Of a DNA stretch of 64,000 bases, positions 64 to 60,512 are shown one piece after another. A model generated the notes under the pieces. The model ran no database searches. It had not been told where the DNA came from and saw only the letters and a program-made list of their open reading frames with translations. The stretch is taken from contig OZ255830.1 of the NCBI GenBank assembly GCA_965277685.1, positions 14,829-78,828 of the forward strand, given 5' to 3'. Every line of letters starts with the position of its first letter. Position 1 is the first letter of the stretch. Source of the DNA: Alphaproteobacteria bacterium. GTDB taxonomy: Bacteria; Pseudomonadota; Alphaproteobacteria; GM7ARS4; CBDIDI01. The position numbers were made by a program, and so were the translations under genes.

Positions 64-246
64 TTGGTGTGTCCGGTGACGAAAACCCCGCTGCGTTATG
101 ATCGAGAGGCCCAAGAGTTAATCAGCGATAAAGCGGGATTGGCCTATCCGATAAAGGACGGCATCGCGATTATGTTGATCGATCAAGCGCGCCCGATTTC
201 CCCTAACACATCAACCCGGCCATCGTCTAAATCATCGGCCGAGTAG
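64..246 (+). CDS. Trm112-family small protein (UPF0434/YcaR-like). The reading frame is open back to the window start, so the true start may lie upstream of the TTG at 64.
   Basis: Translation [45 protein letters not shown] matches the Trm112 consensus (VCPxxKxPL...LxYPIxDGIPxMLxDEAR). Confidence 0.75.
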
Positions 247-476
247 GGCATCGATCAAGCCCGGGGGCCGAGCAGGGCATCGATCAGGCCGGGGGCCGAG
301 GAAAACACCCCGCTTCATCGGTTGGGTCTTTTTCGATCGGCACTATTTCGCTTTTGGGTCTTTGTCTAAACCATCGGCCGAGTAGGGCATCGATCAAGCC
401 GGGGGCCGAGGGAAACACCCCGCTCCATCGGTTGGGTCTTTTTCGATCGGCGCTATTTCGCTTTTGGGTCTTTTAT
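232..476. repeat. Intergenic tandem duplication of about 125 bp (two imperfect copies), with a nested about 30-bp gggcatcgatcaXgccgggggccgag triplet.
   Basis: The string catcggccgagtagggcatcgatcaagcc(c)gggggccgagg.aaacaccccgct.catcggttgggtctttttcgatcggc.ctatttcgcttttgggtcttt occurs at about 232-357 and again at about 370-476. Confidence 0.85.
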
Positions 477-11126: not shown

Positions 11127-11368
11127 TTCCCGATCGACAATATCCGCCCACAAGGGGGCGGGGGATAGCGTCGGGGATGGTGCAAAAAACTTTGGGAGAT
11201 GGCGCACGATACCCCCGCAAGGGGGCGGGGGATAATGTCGGGGACAAGCATCCTTTTCTTGCGAGGGATCCCGTTGTATCAATAGGCGGCAACGGTGAAG
11301 GATTGCGTAACGATCCTTGTCCGCCTTTGTTTTCTGTGCTTGTTTAAGCCGATTGATGTGCCACCCCG

Positions 11369-12292
11369 ATGGGATACGTGCCGCCTATGTCTTCTACGCC
11401 CCCGGTTGATCGGGACCAACTTGCCGCAAAGGGTGTCGCCCTGGCCACGGCATTGCCTTATATGCGCCAATTCAATGATCGCGTTTTCGTCATTAAATTG
11501 GGCGGGGCGGCGATGGAAAGCGCCGAGTTAGCGGAACTTTTTGCCGCTGATATCGTCTTATTGCGCCAAGTCGGTATTTACCCGATCGTTGTCCATGGGG
11601 GCGGGCCGCAAATCGAACATATGCTAAAGCGGCTAAAGATCGAAACCTCTTTCATCGATGGGCTTCGCATTACCGATCCGTCGACTCTTGAAATTGTCGA
11701 GATGGTGCTTAGCGGGAAAATAAACAAAACGATTGTCGCTTCGATCAATCGTGCCGGTGGCATGGCCCTTGGGATGTCGGGTAAGGACACGGGGCTGATC
11801 ACGGCGCGTAAGTTATCACGGCGGCAAAGGGATCCCGATTCCCATATCGAGAAAATCCTCGATCTTGGCCTTGTCGGGGAGCCGGCAAAAATCAACACCC
11901 ATGTATTCGAAACGTTGCGCCGTTCCCAGATCATTCCGGTCATTGCCCCGATTGGCGTCGACGAGGGGGGCACGACCTATAACATCAATGCCGATACCGC
12001 CGCCGGTGCCATTGCCGCTGCCGTTGGGGCAACGCGCCTTTTTCTGCTTACCGATACCAAGGGTGTTTTGGATTCTTCCGGTCGGCAGATATCCCAATTA
12101 CCGGTGGAAAGGGCACGAAGTATGATTCAAGACGGCACGGTTAGCGGCGGGATGATTCCCAAGCTCGAGACTTGTTTTAACGTTCTTGATCAAAACGTCG
12201 AAGGGGCGGTGATCATGGACGGGCGGGTTCCCCACGCGCTATTGCTGGAAATCTTTACCGAGCATGGGGCCGGCACCTTGATTCATGCGTGA
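11369..12292 (+). CDS. argB: Acetylglutamate kinase.
   Basis: VIKLGGAAMES...IVVHGGGPQI...GMSGKDTGLI...NINADTAAGAIA are amino acid kinase family motifs. Confidence 0.88.
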   Translation: MGYVPPMSSTPPVDRDQLAAKGVALATALPYMRQFNDRVFVIKLGGAAMESAELAELFAADIVLLRQVGIYPIVVHGGGPQIEHMLKRLKIETSFIDGLRITDPSTLEIVEMVLSGKINKTIVASINRAGGMALGMSGKDTGLITARKLSRRQRDPDSHIEKILDLGLVGEPAKINTHVFETLRRSQIIPVIAPIGVDEGGTTYNINADTAAGAIAAAVGATRLFLLTDTKGVLDSSGRQISQLPVERARSMIQDGTVSGGMIPKLETCFNVLDQNVEGAVIMDGRVPHALLLEIFTEHGAGTLIHA

Positions 12293-12348
12293 TCGATCAC
12301 GATCGATCACGAAAATATCTGACTTAAATATCCGATTGGGGAAATCTT

Positions 12349-13239
12349 ATGGGCTTTGAAAAAGAAAAAGAAATCATCGAACGGGCGTATGCCGACAGCG
12401 ACGATGCGTCAAAAACCGATATCGCGCAATGGCGCGAGTGCATCGATCACGTTTTCGCCTCTCTTGATCAAGGGGCGCTTTGCGTGGCCGAGAAAAACAA
12501 CGGTCAATGGATTGTCCATGAATGGGTTAAGAAGGCCATTTTGCTTTATTTTCGTTTCCATCCCAATCGGGTTATGGACAGCGGTGCCATCGACGGCGGA
12601 ATGATGGCCAGCTGGTTTGATAAGGTTGGATTGAAAAGCGCCGGTTGGGATAAGAAACAGTGGGAGCAAGCCGGTTTTCGGGCCGTTCCGGGCGCTTGGG
12701 TGCGCAAATCGGCCTATATTGCCCCAGGGGCGGTTTTAATGCCGTGCTTTGTTAATATCGGCGCGCGTGTTGGTCAAGGAACCATGATCGATACCTGGGC
12801 AACGGTTGGATCTTGTGCGCAAATCGGCCAAAATTGCCATATTTCCGGAGGTGCCGGAATTGGCGGAGTGCTGGAGCCTTTGCAAGCAACCCCTGTGATT
12901 ATCGAAGATCAATGTTTTATCGGCGCCCGTTCCGAAATCGCCGAGGGAGTCATCGTCGAGACCGGATCGGTCATATCGATGGGGGTTTATATCGGGGCAT
13001 CGACCCGCATTATCGATCGCGAATCGGGGAAAATCCATTACGGACGGGTACCGGCCTATTCGGTTGTTGTCGCCGGATCCCACCCCTCGTCATCAACGTA
13101 TTCTACAATGGCGGGGGGGGGGACGGCACCGTCATTATATTGCGCCGTTATCGTCAAGCGAGTCGATGCGCGAACCCGTGCGAAAACATCGATCAATCAG
13201 CTGTTGCGCGAAGACACCCCGACATCGATGGAATCATAA
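12349..13239 (+). CDS. dapD: 2,3,4,5-tetrahydropyridine-2,6-dicarboxylate N-succinyltransferase.
   Basis: Hexapeptide-repeat core [23 protein letters not shown]...[13 protein letters not shown] and a C-terminal [26 protein letters not shown] tail. A G10-11 homopolymer at about 13104-13122 encodes GGG. Confidence 0.85.
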
Positions 13240-13848
13240 CCGGATGACCTTGGCATAGCACCCCCCTTCAAAGTTAAAGATCCCGTCGTCCCCCCAGCCA
13301 TGTTCATCATCGCCGATCAAGGTGCGTGAAGAATCGGCACTAAGGGTGGTTTTACCGGTACCGGAGAGTCCGAAGAAAATGGCCGTATCGCCTTCCACCC
13401 CCATATTGGCCGAGCAGTGCATCGGCATAATGCCGCGTTCGGGTAGGATATAATTCATGATCGAGAAGATCGATTTCTTGATCTCCCCGGCATAGCTTGT
13501 TCCGCCAATCAAGATCAGGCGGCGCGAGAAATGGACGACGATAAAGGTCGATGAGCGGGTGGCGTCCGTTTTCGGATCGGCGAGGCATTCCGGTGCCTGG
13601 ATAACCGTAAAGCCGGGCGCAAAGGAGGCCATTTCGTCCGGCGAGGCACCATGAAACATATTGCGGGCAAACAAAGCGTGCCAAGCATGGGCGGTGATAA
13701 CCCGCACCGGCAAACGGCTTTGTTGATCGGCACCGCACCAACAATCTTGGACAAAGACTTCCTTGCCTTCGAGATGGCGGGTGACTTTGCCGCATAGATT
13801 ATCGAAATGGGCATTCGAGATCGGGCGGGGACAGCCCCCTTCCGGCAT
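13234..13848 (-). pseudogene. pckA: Phosphoenolpyruvate carboxykinase (ATP) remnant: only a central fragment of about 200 codons is retained. The N-terminal roughly 90 and C-terminal roughly 240 residues are absent.
   Basis: The ORF covers [31 protein letters not shown]...[23 protein letters not shown]...[62 protein letters not shown], which is the PckA kinase-1a region, then stops. Its 3' end overlaps the dapD stop and its 5' end runs into a tandem repeat array. Confidence 0.75.
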
Positions 13849-13854
13849 CCGCCG

Positions 13855-14096
13855 GGCTTACTCGGTGGGCTTATCCCGGCGGGCGGAATAGGAAAGATAA
13901 AAACGCCGGGCTTACTCGGTGGGCTTACTTGGCAGGCTTATCCCGGCGGGCGGAATAGGAAAGATAAAAACGCCGGGCTTACTCGGTGGGCTTACTTGGC
14001 AGGCTTATCCCGGCGGGCGCAATGGGAAAGATAAAAACGCCGGGCTTACTTGGCGGGCTTACCCCGGCAGGCGCAATAGGAAAGATAAAAAACGCT
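13855..14096. repeat. Tandem repeat array: four copies of a 54/67-bp unit.
   Basis: Unit ccgggcttactcggtgggctta(cttggcaggctta)tcccggcgggcggaataggaaagataaaaacg. The two inner copies carry a 13-bp internal duplication. There are no unique spacers. Confidence 0.85.
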
Positions 14097-15407
14097 TTAG
14101 CCCGGCGATGAATCAATCACTTTATCGGCGATCAGTCGATCGATCGATTGATCGTCCATTCCCAGGATATCGCGCAAGATTTCGCGGTTGTGCTGCCCTA
14201 AAAGCGGCGGCGGGCGTCGATAGGACACTTTTGAACGGGAATAACGGATCGGGTTGGCAATCACATCGATATGGCGTCCTTTTTTGCGTGGGTGATCCAT
14301 CGGCACCACCCGTTTGCGGGCGCGCACCTGGGGGTCGGCAAAAACTTGGCCGATATCGTTAATCGGCGAGCAAGGGACATTCACTTTGGTAAGGCCGTTG
14401 ACCCAATAATCAATCGGCCGTTGAATAATCAAGGGGTTCAATAATTTGGTTAATTGGCGGCGATGGCGCACTCTTTGCCCGTTATCGGCAAAGCGTTTAT
14501 CGTCGGTCAGGTGCGGACATTGCGCAAATCGGCAAAAGCGGGCAAATTGGGCATCGTTACCGACGGCCAGGACGATCATGCCGTCCCGGGCGGCGAATGT
14601 CTGATAGGGGGCGATGCTGTGATGGGCATTGCCGACGCGTTGGGGGATTTGCCCGGAAACCAGATAGCTTTGACCAAGATAGGATAAAAGCGACACCTGG
14701 GAATCAAGAAGGGCGCAATCGATCATCTGGCCCTTGCCGCTTGCCTCGCGTTCACGCATGGCACCCATGATGGCAATGGTGGCATAAAGTCCGGTCACGA
14801 TATCGCACACGCCGACGCCGACCTTCATCGGTTGGCCGGTGGATGTGCCCGTGACACTCATCAACCCGCCCAGAGCCTGGACCAAATAATCATAGCCACC
14901 GCGATTGGCATACGGCCCATCTTGACCAAAGCCGGTCAAGGAACAATAGATAAGTTTGGGATTATCCTTTGCCAAGCGTTGATAAGACAGGGCATAGCGA
15001 TCAAGAATACCCGCCCGAAAATTTTCAATCAGAATATCGCATTTCGCCGCGAGTTGCCGGGCGATTTTTTGCCCGGGTTTGCCGGTTAAATCCAAAGTAA
15101 GGGAGCGCTTATTGCGATTGACGCTAAGAAAATATGCGCTAAGCGGGTGGGCGTCTTCGTTCTCGTCCAGATAAGGGGGGCCCATAAACCGCGAATCATC
15201 GCCGCGACCGGGGCGTTCTATCTTGATAATATCGGCGCCGAGGTCGCCCAGAATCTGACTGCATGTCGGCCCGGCTAAAACCCGGGTTAAATCCAAAACG
15301 CGCACGCCCCGCAAAGGGCCGTTAGTGGGATCTTTTGCCGAGGTATCTGCCGGATTATCTGCCGGGGTATCTGCCGGAGTGGCGGCGGGCGATGGCGTTG
15401 AATTCAT
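14097..15407 (-). CDS. Family III CoA-transferase (CaiB/BaiF, formyl-CoA transferase-like).
   Basis: LRGVRVLDLTRVLAGPTCSQILGDLGADIIKIERPGRGDDSR... plus the central and C-terminal CaiB-family core. The N-terminus carries an ADTPADNPADTS repeat. Confidence 0.8.
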   Translation of the reverse strand: MNSTPSPAATPADTPADNPADTSAKDPTNGPLRGVRVLDLTRVLAGPTCSQILGDLGADIIKIERPGRGDDSRFMGPPYLDENEDAHPLSAYFLSVNRNKRSLTLDLTGKPGQKIARQLAAKCDILIENFRAGILDRYALSYQRLAKDNPKLIYCSLTGFGQDGPYANRGGYDYLVQALGGLMSVTGTSTGQPMKVGVGVCDIVTGLYATIAIMGAMREREASGKGQMIDCALLDSQVSLLSYLGQSYLVSGQIPQRVGNAHHSIAPYQTFAARDGMIVLAVGNDAQFARFCRFAQCPHLTDDKRFADNGQRVRHRRQLTKLLNPLIIQRPIDYWVNGLTKVNVPCSPINDIGQVFADPQVRARKRVVPMDHPRKKGRHIDVIANPIRYSRSKVSYRRPPPLLGQHNREILRDILGMDDQSIDRLIADKVIDSSPG

Positions 15408-20526: not shown

Positions 20527-20635
20527 CCGGGAATTCCAAGAAGTAGAGGCAGCGTCAGACTACGCTTTGAATGGCTCGACCAGCAAGCTATTTCATCATT
20601 ATTCGCCCATTCCGGCCCCATCCCGACAACGGGGC

Positions 20636-20880
20636 AGGGGGATTTTTGCCGATGGATGCAAAGGCAAGGGGCAAAACGGCGCATCCATGAAAGACCCCTT
20701 GAATCAATGAAACGAATGCATGGAACGCCAATCTATGGCGCAGGGGGATTTTTGCCGATGGATGCAAAGGCAAGGGGCAAAACGGCGCATTCATGAAAGA
20801 CCCCTTGAATCAATGAAACGAATCAATGAAACGAATGCATGAAACGCCAATCTATGGCGCAGGGGGATTTTTGCCATTGA
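20636..20880. repeat. Tandem repeat of about 115 bp (two copies plus a partial third) in the divergent intergenic region.
   Basis: gggggatttttgccgatggatgcaaaggcaaggggcaaaacggcgcat.catgaaagaccccttgaatcaatgaaacgaatgcatggaacgccaatctatggcgca is repeated. Confidence 0.85.
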
Positions 20881-26808: not shown

Positions 26809-28740
<1,932 letters not shown>

Positions 28741-28741
28741 G

Positions 28742-28866
28742 ATTACCCGAAATTGCACCCCGAATACGCCGAGGCCCGCTCGCTACATTACCCGGAATTG
28801 CGCCTCGAATACGCCGAGGATTGCTCGCTACATTACCCGGAATTGCCCCCCGAATATGCCGATTAT
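28742..28866. repeat. Tandem repeat: about 46-bp unit, about 2.7 copies, starting immediately after the acs stop.
   Basis: attacccg.aattgc.cc.cgaatacgccgagg...gctcgctac is repeated. Confidence 0.8.
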
Positions 28867-29160
28867 AAGGCGGATTAAGGCATCGATCACGATTCCGATG
28901 CCGTCATCCTATCGGGTGATTATCGGCGCCGCCCAATGGAATGGATTATGACGGGCAAGGGCAATGCCGGGAACCTTTGTCAATGCGACCGACATCAAAG
29001 GCGGCACCAAGGTCGATGTAGCGCGACAGATAGAGTGAGAGCACTCAGGATCCGGGATAAAGCGGGTCCGTTAGGGGCGCGGTGGGACAAGGAATCTATT
29101 GGTGGGGGCGGGTTACGGGGCGATGGTGCGGTGCCCACAGGGCATCAAAACAGGTCCATC

Positions 29161-29218
29161 CCCGCGACAGATGGTTTGATAGCACTTTTACCGACCGCGA
29201 CAGATGGTTTGATAGCAC
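29161..29218. repeat. Left-end transposase-binding-site-like repeats: two direct copies of cgcgacagatggtttgatagcac, inverted relative to the right-end copies.
   Basis: cccgcgacagatggtttgatagcac at 29161-29185 and ccgcgacagatggtttgatagcac at 29195-29218. The reverse complement matches 20 of 24 bp with the 53401-53446 copies. Confidence 0.7.
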
Positions 29219-29539
29219 CCCGATCGGCGCAACGCCCGATGGGATAAGGGCTAGAGGGTGATTTTCGGCCCGACCGAACAACGAAGAAAAACGTAGCTGT
29301 TCCGAATCGACTTATTACTTCACCTGTGAGGCGCGGTTTTCTGCCATTTCCATCAAAACCCGATGCACAAATACCCCGGACTTGCGGCATTTGTGAATTA
29401 AAAGGGGTATAGAGCGATGGATATACAATCATAAATATATCCAAGGGCAAAATCGGCCAATAAGGAAGAATGGGAATGTCCATGGACGAATGACCATCAT
29501 ATCATGGCCGCTATGTCACCGATGAAGGTTCAAGGAACG

Positions 29540-30105
29540 CTATTCGACCGGGCGCGAGCCAACCGAACGGCGATCTGGGCCCGAATGGTTGCCTTGTCCG
29601 ATGGTGCCGCCGCGGGGTTCTGGGCGTTGTATCCGCGTTGACGGCGGCGTTAGACCGGTGATTGAGAATCGGCGAATCGGCCTTTCGACCGGGCGCGAGC
29701 CAACCGGGCGGCGATCTCGGCCCGAATGGTTGCCTTGTCCGATGGTGCCGCTGCGGGGGTCTGGGCGTTGTATCCGCGTTGACGGCGGCGTTGGACCGGT
29801 GATTGAGAATCGGCGAATCGGCCTTTCGGACCGGGCGCGAGCCAACCGGGCGGCGATCTGGGCCCGAATGGCTGCCTTGTCCGATGGTGCCGCCGCGGGG
29901 GTCTGGGCGTTGAATCCGCGTTGACGGCGGCGTTGAACCGGTGATTGAGAATCGGCGAATCGGCCTTTCGACCGGGCGCGAGCCAACCGAACGGCGATCT
30001 GGGCCCGAATGGTTGCCTTGTCCGATGGTGCCGCTGCGGGGGTCTGGGCGTTGAATCCGCGTTGACGGCGGGCGTTGAACCGGCGAATCGGCCGTGATTG
30101 TGGGG
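29540..30105. repeat. Minisatellite: unit of about 130-140 bp, about 4.3 tandem copies, between the element's left end and the repressor gene.
   Basis: cggcgaatcggcctttcgaccgggcgcgagccaacc recurs at about 29541, 29681, 29811 and 29951 with near-identical intervening sequence. The repetitive minus-strand ORFs across it are artefacts. Confidence 0.85.
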
Positions 30106-30249
30106 GCGCACGATATGGGCTTAACTTCCAGGTGAATGGACGATGCCTCCTGTATCGCGCGCCCCCTGACATCTTCTCCTAACGGCAATATAAACCGTGA
30201 CGGGAAATATCAACCCCGCGCGCCTTATTATCGCCTTATTATTTTGGGG

Positions 30250-30879
30250 TTAATCGGTTTTGGCCTTTGGCGGGGTGTTTTCTTCTTCCCGGGGCTTCTC
30301 ATCTTTATTTTTCAGGAACTTCTCATCTGCGGACAGAAAGCGACGCACGTCATGTTTCTTGCCGGTGGATATTTTATGTTTTCGTAATTCGCGGATTTTC
30401 TTAATCTCAATATCCAGCTTTTCCTGAAATTCTTCCCAGCAATGTGCGGCAAACTTGGGATAATCGAGGGGGTGGTGGCGAAATAATTTCAGCCTGACCA
30501 GGATCATCAAGAATTGCCGCAAGGTTTCCTGGAACCAGTCTTTCGACATCGCTTCGCGCCAATCATCAGGTGCCCCGTCCGGCTTGAGGGCCTGGGGAAT
30601 GCCGTCACCGTCCGCCGGGGGCGTCGATTGCGATCCGGCCGGGCGCATCTCACCCTCGCCCGTGGCCAGCCACTCCAGAGACACACCCACAGCACCGGCC
30701 AAACGTGATAACGCGGTGAAAGATGGCGTGCTTTCCCCTTTGCAATAGCGGTTCAGCTGCTCAACGGTAACACCGGCAACTTCACTCGCTTGCTTTTTCG
30801 ATGAGAAAAGATTGATTGCATCTTTAATGCGAGAATTTAGCCCACTATCACGAAATAATGTCTTGACCTTATGTCGCAT
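30250..30879 (-). CDS. Phage repressor-like HTH (XRE/Cro-C1 family) transcriptional regulator, transcribed leftward like Mu c.
   Basis: HTH segment QASEVAGVTVEQLNRYCKGESTPSFTALSRLAGAVGVSLEWLATGEG; divergent from the Ner-like gene. Confidence 0.7.
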   Translation of the reverse strand: MRHKVKTLFRDSGLNSRIKDAINLFSSKKQASEVAGVTVEQLNRYCKGESTPSFTALSRLAGAVGVSLEWLATGEGEMRPAGSQSTPPADGDGIPQALKPDGAPDDWREAMSKDWFQETLRQFLMILVRLKLFRHHPLDYPKFAAHCWEEFQEKLDIEIKKIRELRKHKISTGKKHDVRRFLSADEKFLKNKDEKPREEENTPPKAKTD

Positions 30880-32877: not shown

Positions 32878-33075
32878 CGGCGCCAGCGAACCGCCCGGCA
32901 ACGCCGCGTGGGCGTTCGCGTGTGAGCGTCCCAAAGGGGGACGCGTATTCAAAAATGAGGATGCCGTCATGTCGATGACGGCACCGGCGAACCGCCCGGG
33001 GCGTTCGCGTGTGAGCGTCCCAAAAGGGGACGCGTATTCAAAAATGAGGATGCCGTCATGTGGATGACGGCATCC
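32862..33075. promoter_or_regulatory. Tandem repeat of about 95-100 bp (two copies plus a partial third) carrying three copies of a perfect 22-bp palindrome tgccgtcatgt(c/g)gatgacggca. The last palindrome contains the transposase start codon. Candidate operator or enhancer.
   Basis: Direct repeat gtcatgtggatgacggc.ccagcgaaccgcccgg...gcgttcgcgtgtgagcgtcccaaa.ggggacgcgtattcaaaaatgaggatgccgtcatgt.gatgacggca. The palindrome was confirmed by reverse-complementing by eye. Confidence 0.6.
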
Positions 33076-35235
33076 GAGATTGCGACTTTGCGGTTGCCGG
33101 AATTACCGGCAACGGATGTCGGCATTCGAGCGCGGGCGCAAAAAGACGCATGGCGGTCACGCCGGCGGGCGGGGCGCGGCGGCGGCGTGGAATTTGCCCT
33201 TGAAAGCCTACCGGCCGAAGCGCGCAAGGCGTATCTCGGCACCGATCCGACCCCGGCCATCGACGGCAACCGCCACGATCCGGACAAGATGGATGCGAAA
33301 CTGACCATCATTCAGGTGGCGGCGGCGTGGCGCAAGGCGCAAAGCCTGTCCCTGCGCCGGGGCGAGGCGCAATTTTCGACCCTTTATAATGAAGGCTTGA
33401 TCGATGTGCCGGACTGGACCCGGCGGATTGTGCCGCATTTAAGCGCGGCGAGCCTGGCCCGGTGGCGCAAAATCAAGGATGCGGGGGGATATCGCCGCCT
33501 TGGTGGTGATTATGGCAATCGTTCCGGCACGTCACGCATCGAGCGGGCGGCCAGCGGCGCGGTGGCCGTGAAAATCGCCGCCCTAAAATGCAAGCAACCC
33601 CATTTGACCGCTTATAATATCAAAAGCATTATTTTAAGTGAGTTTAAGGGTGTTTTTGGTAAAAACCCGCCGCCGGTGCGCGCTTTTCAGCGTTTTATTG
33701 CCGAATGGAAAGATAAGAACGCCGAATCGTATCTTTACCTGACCAATCCCGATAAGTGGAAGGGCAGTCGCCGTTTTGCCACCGGGCGGATGTATGATCA
33801 TATCACCACGCCCAATCAGCTTTGGGAAATCGATGCATCCCCGGCCGATGTCATGACGACCGAAGGGCGGCGCAATCTGTATATGGTGATTGATATTGCG
33901 ACCCGGCGGGTCATGGTATCGGTGACGAAAACGGCGCGTAGTGACGCGATGCTTGCCCTTATCCGGCGGGCGATGCTGGTATGGGGGGTGCCGACCACGA
34001 TTCGCACCGATAACGGCAAGGATTTTGTATCGCGGGCGGCAAAGCGGGTCTTTACCGCCCTTGATATTCATCAGGATATCGCGCCGCCCTTCACACCGGA
34101 GGCCAAAGCGGCGGTCGAGCGGGCATTTCGGACATTACAACACGATTTAATGCCGCTGATCCCGGGCTATGTCGGGCATAACGTGGCCGACCGGCAGGAA
34201 ATCCGCGCGCGCAAGAAGTTTGCCCGGCGGCTTGGCGAGGACAATCGGAAAATCTTTCACATCGATACGGATGCGGCCGGTCTGCAATCGACCATCGATG
34301 CCTGGATTGCCAAGAAATACGAACATAAACCCCATGCCGGACTTGGCGGCAAAACGCCCTTTGCGGTGGCGGCGGCCTATGACGGCGTTATTCGCAAGAT
34401 CGAGAACGAGCGGGCGGTCGATATGCTGCTTGCGCCGGCGGCCGATGGCGATGGTTATCGCCAGGTGACCAAGCGCGGCATTCGGGTGGCGGGGGCTTAT
34501 TTTATCGGATCGGGATTAACGCCCGGCATGCGGGTTTTTGTCCGTTTTGACCCGGTCGATTTAGGGCGGATTTACGCCTTTACCGATGAATACGGCGATT
34601 TTATCGCCGATGCGATATGCCCGGAGCGGGCCGGTGTCGATCGGGTGGCGGCGGCAAGGGCGGCAAGGGCCGAGCAAGGGCGGCGAATAAGGCAAGAAGT
34701 CCGGCCACTCCAACAGGAAATCAACCGGATCAAGGACACCGATATGGTGGATGCGGTTCTTGGCGAGGCAGAGCGGCAAAACGGCAATATCACGGCGTTT
34801 CCACAGCGGGTCGATGCCCATACGACGCCCGCCCTTAAAGCAGCAGGGGAAGCGGCCAGGGAGACAATAGGGGAAGCAGCCGGGGACGCGGCCCGTGAAA
34901 CAATGGGGGAAGCGGCCCTTGAAGCGACCGGGGAAGCGGCCGGGGAGGTGGCCGGGGAGACAATGGGGGAGACAATGGGGGATGGGGCGCGGCAACACCT
35001 TATCGCCGATATGGCAACGGCCAAGCGGGCCCGCACCGATCCGATGGCGGATAAGGAAAGACGCTTTGCCCGGTGCCGCGATTTACAAAAAAAGCAGATA
35101 AACGGCGCCGCGATTAGTGATGATGACGCGCGCTGGCTGGAAAATTACGAAACCACGCCGGAATACCACGCGAAAGCGGCGATGGAGTCCGATTTTGCCG
35201 TTTTGGAAAAACCACGGGTGGCCGCGCATGGATAA
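33058..35235 (+). CDS. Mu-type DDE transposase A (rve/integrase-core superfamily).
   Basis: N-terminal DNA-binding region; catalytic core WEIDASPADVMT...YMVIDIATRRVM...IRTDNGKDFVS...ERAFRTLQ (D, D, E triad context). The C-terminal low-complexity GEAAGE repeat is encoded by a DNA repeat at 34850-34990. Immediately followed by a B-like ATPase. Confidence 0.8.
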   Translation: MWMTASEIATLRLPELPATDVGIRARAQKDAWRSRRRAGRGGGVEFALESLPAEARKAYLGTDPTPAIDGNRHDPDKMDAKLTIIQVAAAWRKAQSLSLRRGEAQFSTLYNEGLIDVPDWTRRIVPHLSAASLARWRKIKDAGGYRRLGGDYGNRSGTSRIERAASGAVAVKIAALKCKQPHLTAYNIKSIILSEFKGVFGKNPPPVRAFQRFIAEWKDKNAESYLYLTNPDKWKGSRRFATGRMYDHITTPNQLWEIDASPADVMTTEGRRNLYMVIDIATRRVMVSVTKTARSDAMLALIRRAMLVWGVPTTIRTDNGKDFVSRAAKRVFTALDIHQDIAPPFTPEAKAAVERAFRTLQHDLMPLIPGYVGHNVADRQEIRARKKFARRLGEDNRKIFHIDTDAAGLQSTIDAWIAKKYEHKPHAGLGGKTPFAVAAAYDGVIRKIENERAVDMLLAPAADGDGYRQVTKRGIRVAGAYFIGSGLTPGMRVFVRFDPVDLGRIYAFTDEYGDFIADAICPERAGVDRVAAARAARAEQGRRIRQEVRPLQQEINRIKDTDMVDAVLGEAERQNGNITAFPQRVDAHTTPALKAAGEAARETIGEAAGDAARETMGEAALEATGEAAGEVAGETMGETMGDGARQHLIADMATAKRARTDPMADKERRFARCRDLQKKQINGAAISDDDARWLENYETTPEYHAKAAMESDFAVLEKPRVAAHG

Positions 35236-43487: not shown

Positions 43488-45020
43488 ATGGCTTATTACA
43501 CCCTGATTACCGATAAAGGCAAAGCGGCCCTCGTCAAGTCGTCGAGCACCGGGGACAAGTTAAACCTGACCCATATTGCCGCCGGCGATGGCAAGGGCGG
43601 GGAGTATGAACCGACCGAGGCCGCCACCGCCCTTAAAGGGGAAGTATGGCGCGGCCCGGTCGCGCGGATCTCCCCCCATGATGACGATCCGGCCTGGCTT
43701 GTCATCGAGACGGTCATCCCCCAATCGGCCGGATCCTTCACGGTGCGCGAGGTCGGGGTCTATGACAGTGACGGCGCTCTGTTCGCGATTGGTAAATATC
43801 CCGAAACCTACAAGCCGCAAATATCGGACGGGGCCGGCAAGGAATTGCTGCTGCGAATCATCCTGCAAGTATCGAACGCGGCCAGTGTTAATTTGACCCT
43901 GTCCAGTCGGGCGGTGGCGACCCATCGCTTTGTGACCGATAAAGTGATCGAGCATAATACCGATTTGCTTGCCCATGCCAATCTTGCCGTGCCGGACGCC
44001 AGCACAGAAACCAAAGGAAAGGTGGAGCTTGCCACCTACGATGAAGTATACGCGGGCACCGATGAATTCCGCGCCGTTACCCCGTACGGATTGAAATGGG
44101 CCTTGCCGGCCTTGATGCCGGACGCCGACACATCAATCAAAGGCAAGGTGGAACTGGCCACGTCTGCCGAGACCACAACCGGCACCGATGCCGTTCGCGC
44201 CGTTACCCCGGCCGGATTGAAAGCGGCCTTGCCGATCTTGGTGCCGGACGCCGGCACGGAAACCAAAGGCAGAGTGGAACTTGCCACCGGCACGGAGACC
44301 ACAACCGGCACCGACGCCGTCCGCGCCGTCACCCCGGCCGGATTGAAAGCGGCCTTGCCGACCTTGGTGCCGGACGCCGGCACAGAAACCAAAGGCAAGG
44401 TGGAACTGGCCACGTCTGCCGAGACCACAACCGGCACCGACGCCGAACGCGCCGTCACCCCGGCCGGATTGAAATCGGCCTTACCGACCTTGGTGCCGTC
44501 CGCCAGCACATTAACCAAAGGCAAGGTGGAGCTTGCCACCGGCACGGAGACCTCAACCGGCACCGATGCCGTTCGCGCCGTTACCCCGGCCGGATTAAGA
44601 TACGCCCTGCCAAAGATGGCCAAGGAAGAAGCCTTTGATATCCCCTTTATGGCGGGCTTTTCGTCCTTGACGATGGAACCGGAAGATCTCGAGGTTCGCA
44701 CTTACGGCATAATGGTAGCTGCGCGCAATTTTCAGATCGTCGGTGCCACCGCGCTACTGCACAGTCAAGCGCGAGACACCACGTTTGACGTCATTGTAAA
44801 AAGAGGCGTTGATGACAACCGCAGCGCGGATCATACATCCATTTTTAACGAGACAAAACCGACATTTAACAATGCGACAACACCATCCGACATATCGATT
44901 GACGGTCGTAACGATGGGCGTGTCAGCGCCGGTAACGTCATCATCTTCAAGGTGATTTCGGTATACGCAACCAAGCCGGGAAAGGGACTTTTGCTTGGGC
45001 TTAAGGGGAAGGTTGTATAA
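43488..45020 (+). CDS. Tail fiber protein (P2 gpH-type N-terminal domain) with five internal repeats of about 40 aa.
   Basis: N-terminus MAYYTLITDKGKAALVKS...LNLTHIAAGDGKG....PTEAATALKGEVWRG...DPAWLVIETVIP.....REVGVYDSDGALFAIGKYPETYKP matches the conserved gpH N-terminal domain. The repeat unit is TKGKVELAT..ETTTGTDAVRAVTPAGLKAALP.LVPDAGTE. Confidence 0.75.
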   Translation: MAYYTLITDKGKAALVKSSSTGDKLNLTHIAAGDGKGGEYEPTEAATALKGEVWRGPVARISPHDDDPAWLVIETVIPQSAGSFTVREVGVYDSDGALFAIGKYPETYKPQISDGAGKELLLRIILQVSNAASVNLTLSSRAVATHRFVTDKVIEHNTDLLAHANLAVPDASTETKGKVELATYDEVYAGTDEFRAVTPYGLKWALPALMPDADTSIKGKVELATSAETTTGTDAVRAVTPAGLKAALPILVPDAGTETKGRVELATGTETTTGTDAVRAVTPAGLKAALPTLVPDAGTETKGKVELATSAETTTGTDAERAVTPAGLKSALPTLVPSASTLTKGKVELATGTETSTGTDAVRAVTPAGLRYALPKMAKEEAFDIPFMAGFSSLTMEPEDLEVRTYGIMVAARNFQIVGATALLHSQARDTTFDVIVKRGVDDNRSADHTSIFNETKPTFNNATTPSDISIDGRNDGRVSAGNVIIFKVISVYATKPGKGLLLGLKGKVV

Positions 45021-53481: not shown

Positions 53482-53558
53482 TGGTAGCGGAGGAGGGACT
53501 CGAACCCCCGACCTAGTGATTATGATTCACCCGCTCTAACCAGCTGAGCTACTCCGCC
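53482..53558 (-). tRNA. tRNA with a CAU anticodon: elongator tRNA-Met, or tRNA-Ile2 if modified to lysidine. Its 3' CCA end faces the right end of the mobile element.
   Basis: Minus-strand sequence GGCGGAGTAGCTCAGCTGGTTAGAGCGGGTGAATCATAATCACTAGGTCGGGGGTTCGAGTCCCTCCTCCGCTACCA has a 7-bp acceptor stem, a D-loop AGCTCAGCTGGTTAGAGC, an anticodon loop ATCATAA, and a T-arm GGTTCGAGTCC. Confidence 0.85.
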
Positions 53559-60424: not shown

Positions 60425-60512
60425 AATCCATCAAAGCGGGATATTAAAGTTATCCATCAAGCAAAGCGGGCTATCAAAGTGATCCATCAAGCAAAGCGGG
60501 ATATTAAAGAGG
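60425..60512. repeat. Triple tandem repeat of about 30 bp immediately upstream of the amtB start; candidate regulator binding sites.
   Basis: catcaaagcgggatattaaag / ccatcaagcaaagcgggctatcaaagtgat / ccatcaagcaaagcgggatattaaag. Confidence 0.7.

Follow-up and report, generated by a model that had tools for sequence, protein, structure and literature searches.

The pckA fragment locus

The window analysed here is a 64-kb stretch of DNA from a deep-branching alphaproteobacterium, whose source sequence is a single contig of 1,633,338 bp. A 204-codon open reading frame (ORF) related to the PEP carboxykinase gene pckA lies in it between two intact genes, dapD and a CoA-transferase gene, with a tandem repeat array filling the whole gap between the CoA-transferase gene and the fragment (Table 1).

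Table 1. Coordinates of the pckA fragment, its neighbours and other features of the window.
Feature	Position	Strand	Description
dapD	12349..13239	+	intact; above the TIGR00965 equivalog cut-off; 9-aa insertion and 8-codon non-homologous tail
left (dapD-side) junction	13213..13236		24 nt that encode the DapD tail DTPTSMES, without counterpart in DapD homologues
pckA-fragment ORF	13234..13848	-	204 aa; the ATG, the first 3-7 codons and the TGA stop are non-pckA sequence
pckA-homologous segment	13237..13839	-	approximately E. coli PckA residues 95-292; contains the P-loop, IGDDEHGW and FEGGCYAK
right junction, pckA homology/repeat array	13840..13849		edge of homology against start of array
tandem array, 4 units	13850..14096		58, 67, 67 and 55 nt in register; 247 nt in total
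family III (CaiB/BaiF) CoA-transferase gene	14097..15407	-	intact; same strand as the fragment and upstream of it; array sets in at its stop codon
tandem arrays in the window	237-473, 11142-11244, 13850-14096, 20631-20875, 28729-28862, 29543-30083, 32895-33072, 60432-60509		
Mu-like prophage	~30250-53300		HTH repressor-like ORF 30250..30879 (-); Mu transposase 33058..35235
tRNA gene	53485-53558	-	just beyond the prophage

Intact genes of the window include argB, argG, dapD, ispDF, acs and amtB. A Mu-like prophage is also present, carrying baseplate J, P2 gpI, sheath, tape-measure and gpU functions and a tail fibre with 126-nt coding repeats (43929-44684); the only ORFs of at least 700 aa in the window encode a glycosyltransferase, the Mu transposase and the phage tape-measure protein. 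Apart from the fragment, no pckA, ppdK or ppsA was found in the 64-kb window. Short intergenic tandem arrays are numerous (at least eight in 64 kb), with units of 30-141 nt that are unrelated in sequence to one another, and several of them begin on a stop codon or no more than about 20 nt from one (a hydrolase ORF, yidC, the CoA-transferase gene, acs and a ParB-like ORF). The roughly 1.4 kb between acs and the prophage (28863-30249) has no ORF with a Pfam match and is dominated by an array of 3.8 copies of a 141-nt unit; it is only the repeat that keeps ORFs open there on both strands.

An internal segment of PEP carboxykinase

The family assignment of the fragment is unambiguous. Pfam places it in PEPCK_ATP (PF01293; E = 1.6e-90), with residues 8-204 aligned to profile positions 64-261 of 465, and a phmmer search of PDB sequences aligns it to residues 95-292 of E. 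coli PckA (1aq2) and to residues 75-276 of Thermus thermophilus PckA (1j3b; E = 1.7e-78, about 65% identity). Together with the ORF call, these searches confirm the residue range (roughly 95-290), the P-loop and the coordinates reported in a first-pass annotation of this DNA. Both the P-loop (kinase-1a) motif GLSGTGKTT and the metal-binding motif IGDDEH(GW) are kept, and both are invariant. The same annotation held that the N-terminal region and the whole C-terminal half of the enzyme were missing; the N-terminal part is indeed gone, but about the first 60 residues of the C-terminal nucleotide-binding domain, the P-loop among them, remain in the fragment.

The NCBIfam PckA models recognize the fragment with E-values down to 6e-98, over positions 81-277 of 529 or 82-280 of 532, yet in all six models it scores below the curated whole-protein cut-off (287-329 bits, against cut-offs that span 369-815 and, for the models matched over these positions, 590-815): 287.3 vs 590 for TIGR00224, 328.7 vs 636 for NF006820, and 306.1 vs 806 for NF006822. 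The 197 positions that are present, of roughly 530, would give a product amounting to 37% of the enzyme.

The edges of the homology are sharp. When 62 full-length PckA proteins, taken from pckA loci fetched by a genome scan, were run by tblastn against the 64-kb window, every one of them (62/62) gave one strong segment; all segments end at 13237, and they start at 13806-13839. Homology ends with the codon TTA (Leu), which corresponds to L292 of the E. coli and L276 of the Thermus enzyme, and TGA comes next on that strand. At the opposite edge, residues 1-3 of the fragment (MPE), and possibly those through residue 7, are unlike PckA, with Pro at a position where Asn is conserved in at least 95% of homologues; residues 4-7 align poorly, and the true right break could be further inward, down to about 13826. 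The fragment thus carries non-homologous sequence at both of its ends and is shorter than functional homologues.

What lies outside these edges includes much of what the enzyme conserves. Of 71 invariant PckA columns, 34 fall in the absent regions, 5 of them N-terminal and 29 C-terminal, and the part beyond the fragment's end holds 71 columns conserved at 95% or more. The N-terminal substrate-site motif TGRSPxDKFxV belongs to the missing part and has no significant match anywhere in the window, and the C-terminal motifs TENTR, DAFGVLPP, QAMYHFLSGYT, AGTE and NTGWxGG are missing from fragment and window alike. No other piece of pckA in the 64-kb window scored better than E = 0.01 with the 62 queries. 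The missing parts were also sought elsewhere in the window at E ≤ 10 with the same 62 queries, and nothing above chance was returned. Because 34 of the 71 invariant residues are missing and the scores fall below every curated PckA cut-off, the fragment is predicted to be unable to work as a PEP carboxykinase; a product that comprises 37% of the enzyme and straddles its two domains would not be one.

The dapD junction

The overlap of the fragment's end with the dapD stop on the opposite strand, already remarked upon from the sequence, measures 6 nt: TCATAA at 13234-13239, which on the plus strand is the final sense codon plus the stop of dapD. The TGA of the pckA frame occupies 13234-13236, and the dapD stop TAA (13237-13239) is antisense to the last pckA codon, TTA.

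Comparison with relatives indicates that this end of dapD is not the usual one. The closest DapD homologues are 63-67% identical to the DapD of the window. In the three relatives whose contigs were read (DapD identity 64-67%), dapE follows dapD in the same direction after 3-16 nt, and DapD ends in INELLR plus a single D, N or S before the stop, i.e. one residue past LLR; solved DapD structures end 0-3 residues past LLR. The DapD of the window reads INQLLRE and then runs on through DTPTSMES, 8 extra codons for which there is no homologue, and dapE was not found in the 64-kb window. Given a DapD tail without homologue and no dapE in the 64 kb, this comparison places the break of the dapD-dapE pair, and the loss or replacement of the usual dapD stop, at the very point where homology to pckA ends.

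Two further observations concern the same gene. A G10 homopolymer (13113-13122) lies in frame within the 9-residue insertion of dapD, which solved DapD structures lack; such a run could be a hotspot for slippage or for sequencing errors, in a gene that is essential. In addition, argB and dapD are adjacent in the window, and in the locus of one relative (L081) they are split by DUF2336, GGDEF and HAD-hydrolase genes (region 12292-13239 compared with loci L081-L083). The absence of dapE and the argB-dapD adjacency suggest that local gene loss or reshuffling may have been extensive.

The tandem array and the CoA-transferase gene

At its other end the fragment had been described as abutting a 54/67-bp tandem array, and it does: its ATG occupies 13846-13848 and the array runs from 13850 or 13854, which leaves the ATG one base from the first array unit and from an 8-bp GC stem. 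Tandem Repeats Finder (TRF) resolves periods of 67 nt (3.1 copies, 95% matches) and 54 nt (1.9 copies), and the difference between the two lengths is one extra copy of the 13-nt sub-repeat GGGCTTACTYGGY. The array runs up to 14096 and stops one base short of the CoA-transferase stop codon. Within the window its 54-nt core is confined to this place, with 3 matches when up to 3 mismatches are allowed (0 expected).

Every unit has, on the minus strand, a CGCCGGG/CCCGGCG stem, with TTTTT following three of the stems and the fourth abutting the fragment's ATG. The array is like an intrinsic (Rho-independent) terminator in that three units offer a 7-bp GC-rich stem plus TTTTT directly past the CoA-transferase stop, and unlike canonical terminators in its loops of 18-31 nt, which are far larger. 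A terminator scan called no hairpins in the array, the 18-31-nt loops being above its loop limit; the array folds no better than shuffled sequence (z = +2.0), and it has no Rfam match at the gathering threshold or at E ≤ 1. From the stems and T-runs we would tentatively suggest that the array could be a multiplied terminator. A scan for the sigma-70 consensus found no promoter-like site between the CoA-transferase gene and the ATG. With three modules of hairpin plus T-run ahead of it and no promoter of its own that could be recognised, the fragment is unlikely to be expressed.

A degraded 5' region of pckA was considered as a source of the array and rejected, since DNA comparison with relatives did no better than shuffles: blastn-short matches of the array to the 5' DNA of relatives' pckA genes reached at most 20.3 bits, against 20.3-26.3 bits for shuffled sequences. 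A tblastn extension does align the array-encoded RFYLSYSARRDK with RFIVEEDATKDE in frame, for a gain of only about +2 in raw score after the gap penalty.

The CoA-transferase itself has 436 aa here, compared with 413 aa in homologues; its N-terminal extension of 23 aa derives partly from a short direct DNA repeat (15340-15385), three copies of TATCTGCCGG that encode the peptide PADTPADNPADTSA. Other ORFs in the window also seem longer than their families (GpsA 408, IspDF 507, the DksA ORF 231 and MnmA 430 aa), which may in part reflect the calling of ORFs from their first start.

A native gene piece, probably truncated recently

Codon usage, GC content and alphaproteobacterial nearest homologues for PckA, DapD and the CoA-transferase led us to reject a foreign origin. 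The GC content is continuous across the region, with a GC3 of 0.64 for the fragment; the fragment's codon-usage score of 0.231 stands at the top of the host range (0.106-0.230 in 21 host genes); and its nearest homologues (Rhodospirillales, Thalassobaculum) show the level of identity found for DapD and the CoA-transferase. By these measures the fragment is to be regarded as a piece of a native gene.

Within the span that it covers, the fragment is as well conserved as a working enzyme. Aligned with 62 homologues, it retains 37 of 37 invariant columns, 56 of 57 columns conserved at 95% or more and 87 of 90 conserved at 80% or more; by this count the average functional homologue does no better, in a set whose choice by similarity to the fragment biases the test slightly. 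The interior has no stop, no frameshift and no change at an invariant position. Were 15 or more replacements scattered at random over the 201 homologous codons, all 37 invariant sites would escape less than 5% of the time (0.816^15), and the untouched state of these sites points to small divergence since inactivation. An open frame, unchanged invariant positions and host-like codon usage together argue that the truncation was evolutionarily recent, and we interpret the missing signs of relaxed selection as a mark of that recency and not of function.

Function would be the alternative reading of the same data, with the 204-aa product expressed and put to a new use, perhaps in regulation or as a nucleotide-binding P-loop protein; for this speak an ORF that is open across exactly the homologous span, its ATG, and the retention of every invariant residue, including the P-loop and DDEH. 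Such a role is nevertheless extremely unlikely. Aligned to 1aq2 and 1j3b, whose domain limits we take as a guide, the product spans parts of two structural domains and is not one folding unit; its start and stop both derive from junction sequence; there is no promoter-like site or well-spaced Shine-Dalgarno sequence, and the ATG sits one base from the GC stem. Nor was a similarly truncated homologue from a closer relative found, the best match being 65-66% identical and the named short matches being labelled partial.

An undamaged interior between two non-ancestral flanks would also suit a single recent capture, in which an ectopic partial copy of pckA was taken up as filler during repair of a break between dapD and dapE, the intact gene lying elsewhere and no function being lost. 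When the 204 aa served as query in a protein search, no listed target was longer than 356 aa, and a length bias may have hidden a full-length paralogue. Among the matches listed, however, the fragment itself is the sole one from the source contig, and the next best is 65-66% identical; other proteins of the source genome are present in that collection, and the 64 kb contain no further pckA sequence. We regard a captured copy as improbable and continue to read the fragment as what is left of the organism's own gene.

Gene order in relatives

It had been proposed to find the deletion endpoints by aligning the locus with relatives. This succeeded in locating the dapD-dapE break, but not in recovering synteny for the pckA locus, and the relatives of the CoA-transferase gene have pyrB-pyrC downstream of it, not pckA. 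Within 10 kb of pckA, neither dapD nor this CoA-transferase gene nor argG occurs in any of the 80 loci fetched (0/80), and the closest CoA-transferase homologues (60-62% identical) lie in a ruvX-Mem_trans (permease)-CoAT-pyrB-pyrC context. Because dapD, CoA-transferase and argG are absent from the 80 pckA loci and the CoA-transferase relatives keep to a ruvX-pyrBC context, neither flank of the fragment is likely to be a conserved pckA neighbourhood; all comparators are distant, with best homologues 60-67% identical, and the gene order they share may not represent the ancestral order in this lineage. Collections of billions of sequences hold no relative above about 67% identity for the PckA fragment, DapD or the CoA-transferase.

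Unfamiliar joins of this kind could come from assembly, the contig being a chimera at either junction or at both and pckA being intact in the actual genome. The homology ends sharply, on one side next to a tandem repeat, the interior resembles a working gene, and the source may be a metagenome-assembled genome (MAG), as are its closest relatives in the collections. Against this, the array is only 247 nt long and the dapD-side junction is without a repeat; there is no step in composition or codon usage across the region, the genes on either side are whole, and the contig is a single 1.63-Mb piece. A chimeric join would, moreover, leave the absence of both missing parts of pckA unexplained. We consider an artefact very unlikely.

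A probable remnant of the organism's own pckA

We conclude that the fragment is, in all likelihood, a non-functional remnant of the organism's own pckA, silent or useless to it. The earlier proposal that a deletion or rearrangement destroyed pckA is supported: the homology ends abruptly, the dapD-dapE adjacency and the normal DapD end are lost, 34 of 71 invariant columns are gone, an array has expanded out of an unrelated gene's 3' end, and all PckA cut-offs are failed.

Two breakpoints would have removed the first ~80-95 and the last ~250 codons of pckA. At the 3' breakpoint, which follows the Leu that matches E. coli L292, the middle of pckA would have been fused head-on to the very end of dapD, and the event may have put another stop in place of the usual one of dapD and displaced or deleted dapE. 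At the 5' breakpoint the fragment would adjoin the CoA-transferase gene's 3' untranslated segment, amplified in tandem. Such a history is somewhat unexpected under slow decay, as a two-sided truncation with a pristine interior needs two structural events, or one complex event, to come first.

The undamaged interior, the break at the dapD-dapE split and the many arrays at gene ends leave room for structural, repeat-associated gene loss. It is conceivable, although we hold it doubtful, that such loss is active in this lineage, with illegitimate recombination and tandem amplification of stop-proximal intergenic segments outpacing decay by point mutation.

For annotation, the ORF should be flagged as a pckA pseudogene and not as a 204-aa protein. 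The finding also suggests that PckA may not serve this organism as a route from oxaloacetate to PEP. A reduced or host-associated lifestyle had been proposed along with the loss; a reduced genome is plausible from the 1,633,338-bp contig, but host association is unsupported, the biosynthetic genes in the window being intact. The fragment alone matters little, as one more dead gene, and its modest added value is evolutionary: the remnant marks a recent structural event, one that also split dapD from dapE, in a small-genome lineage without close sequenced relatives.

Truncated gene remnants are known from shrinking genomes such as those of Mycobacterium leprae, Rickettsia and recent insect symbionts, and the fragment is like them in being an enzyme gene cut at both ends, in a small genome of 1.63 Mb with disrupted gene order. 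It is unlike them in its setting, a gene-dense window with no other obvious remnants where checked, and unlike typical old pseudogenes in having no internal stop, frameshift or replacement at an invariant site. The fragment adds one more truncated pseudogene to a familiar class, ordinary but for its undamaged interior.
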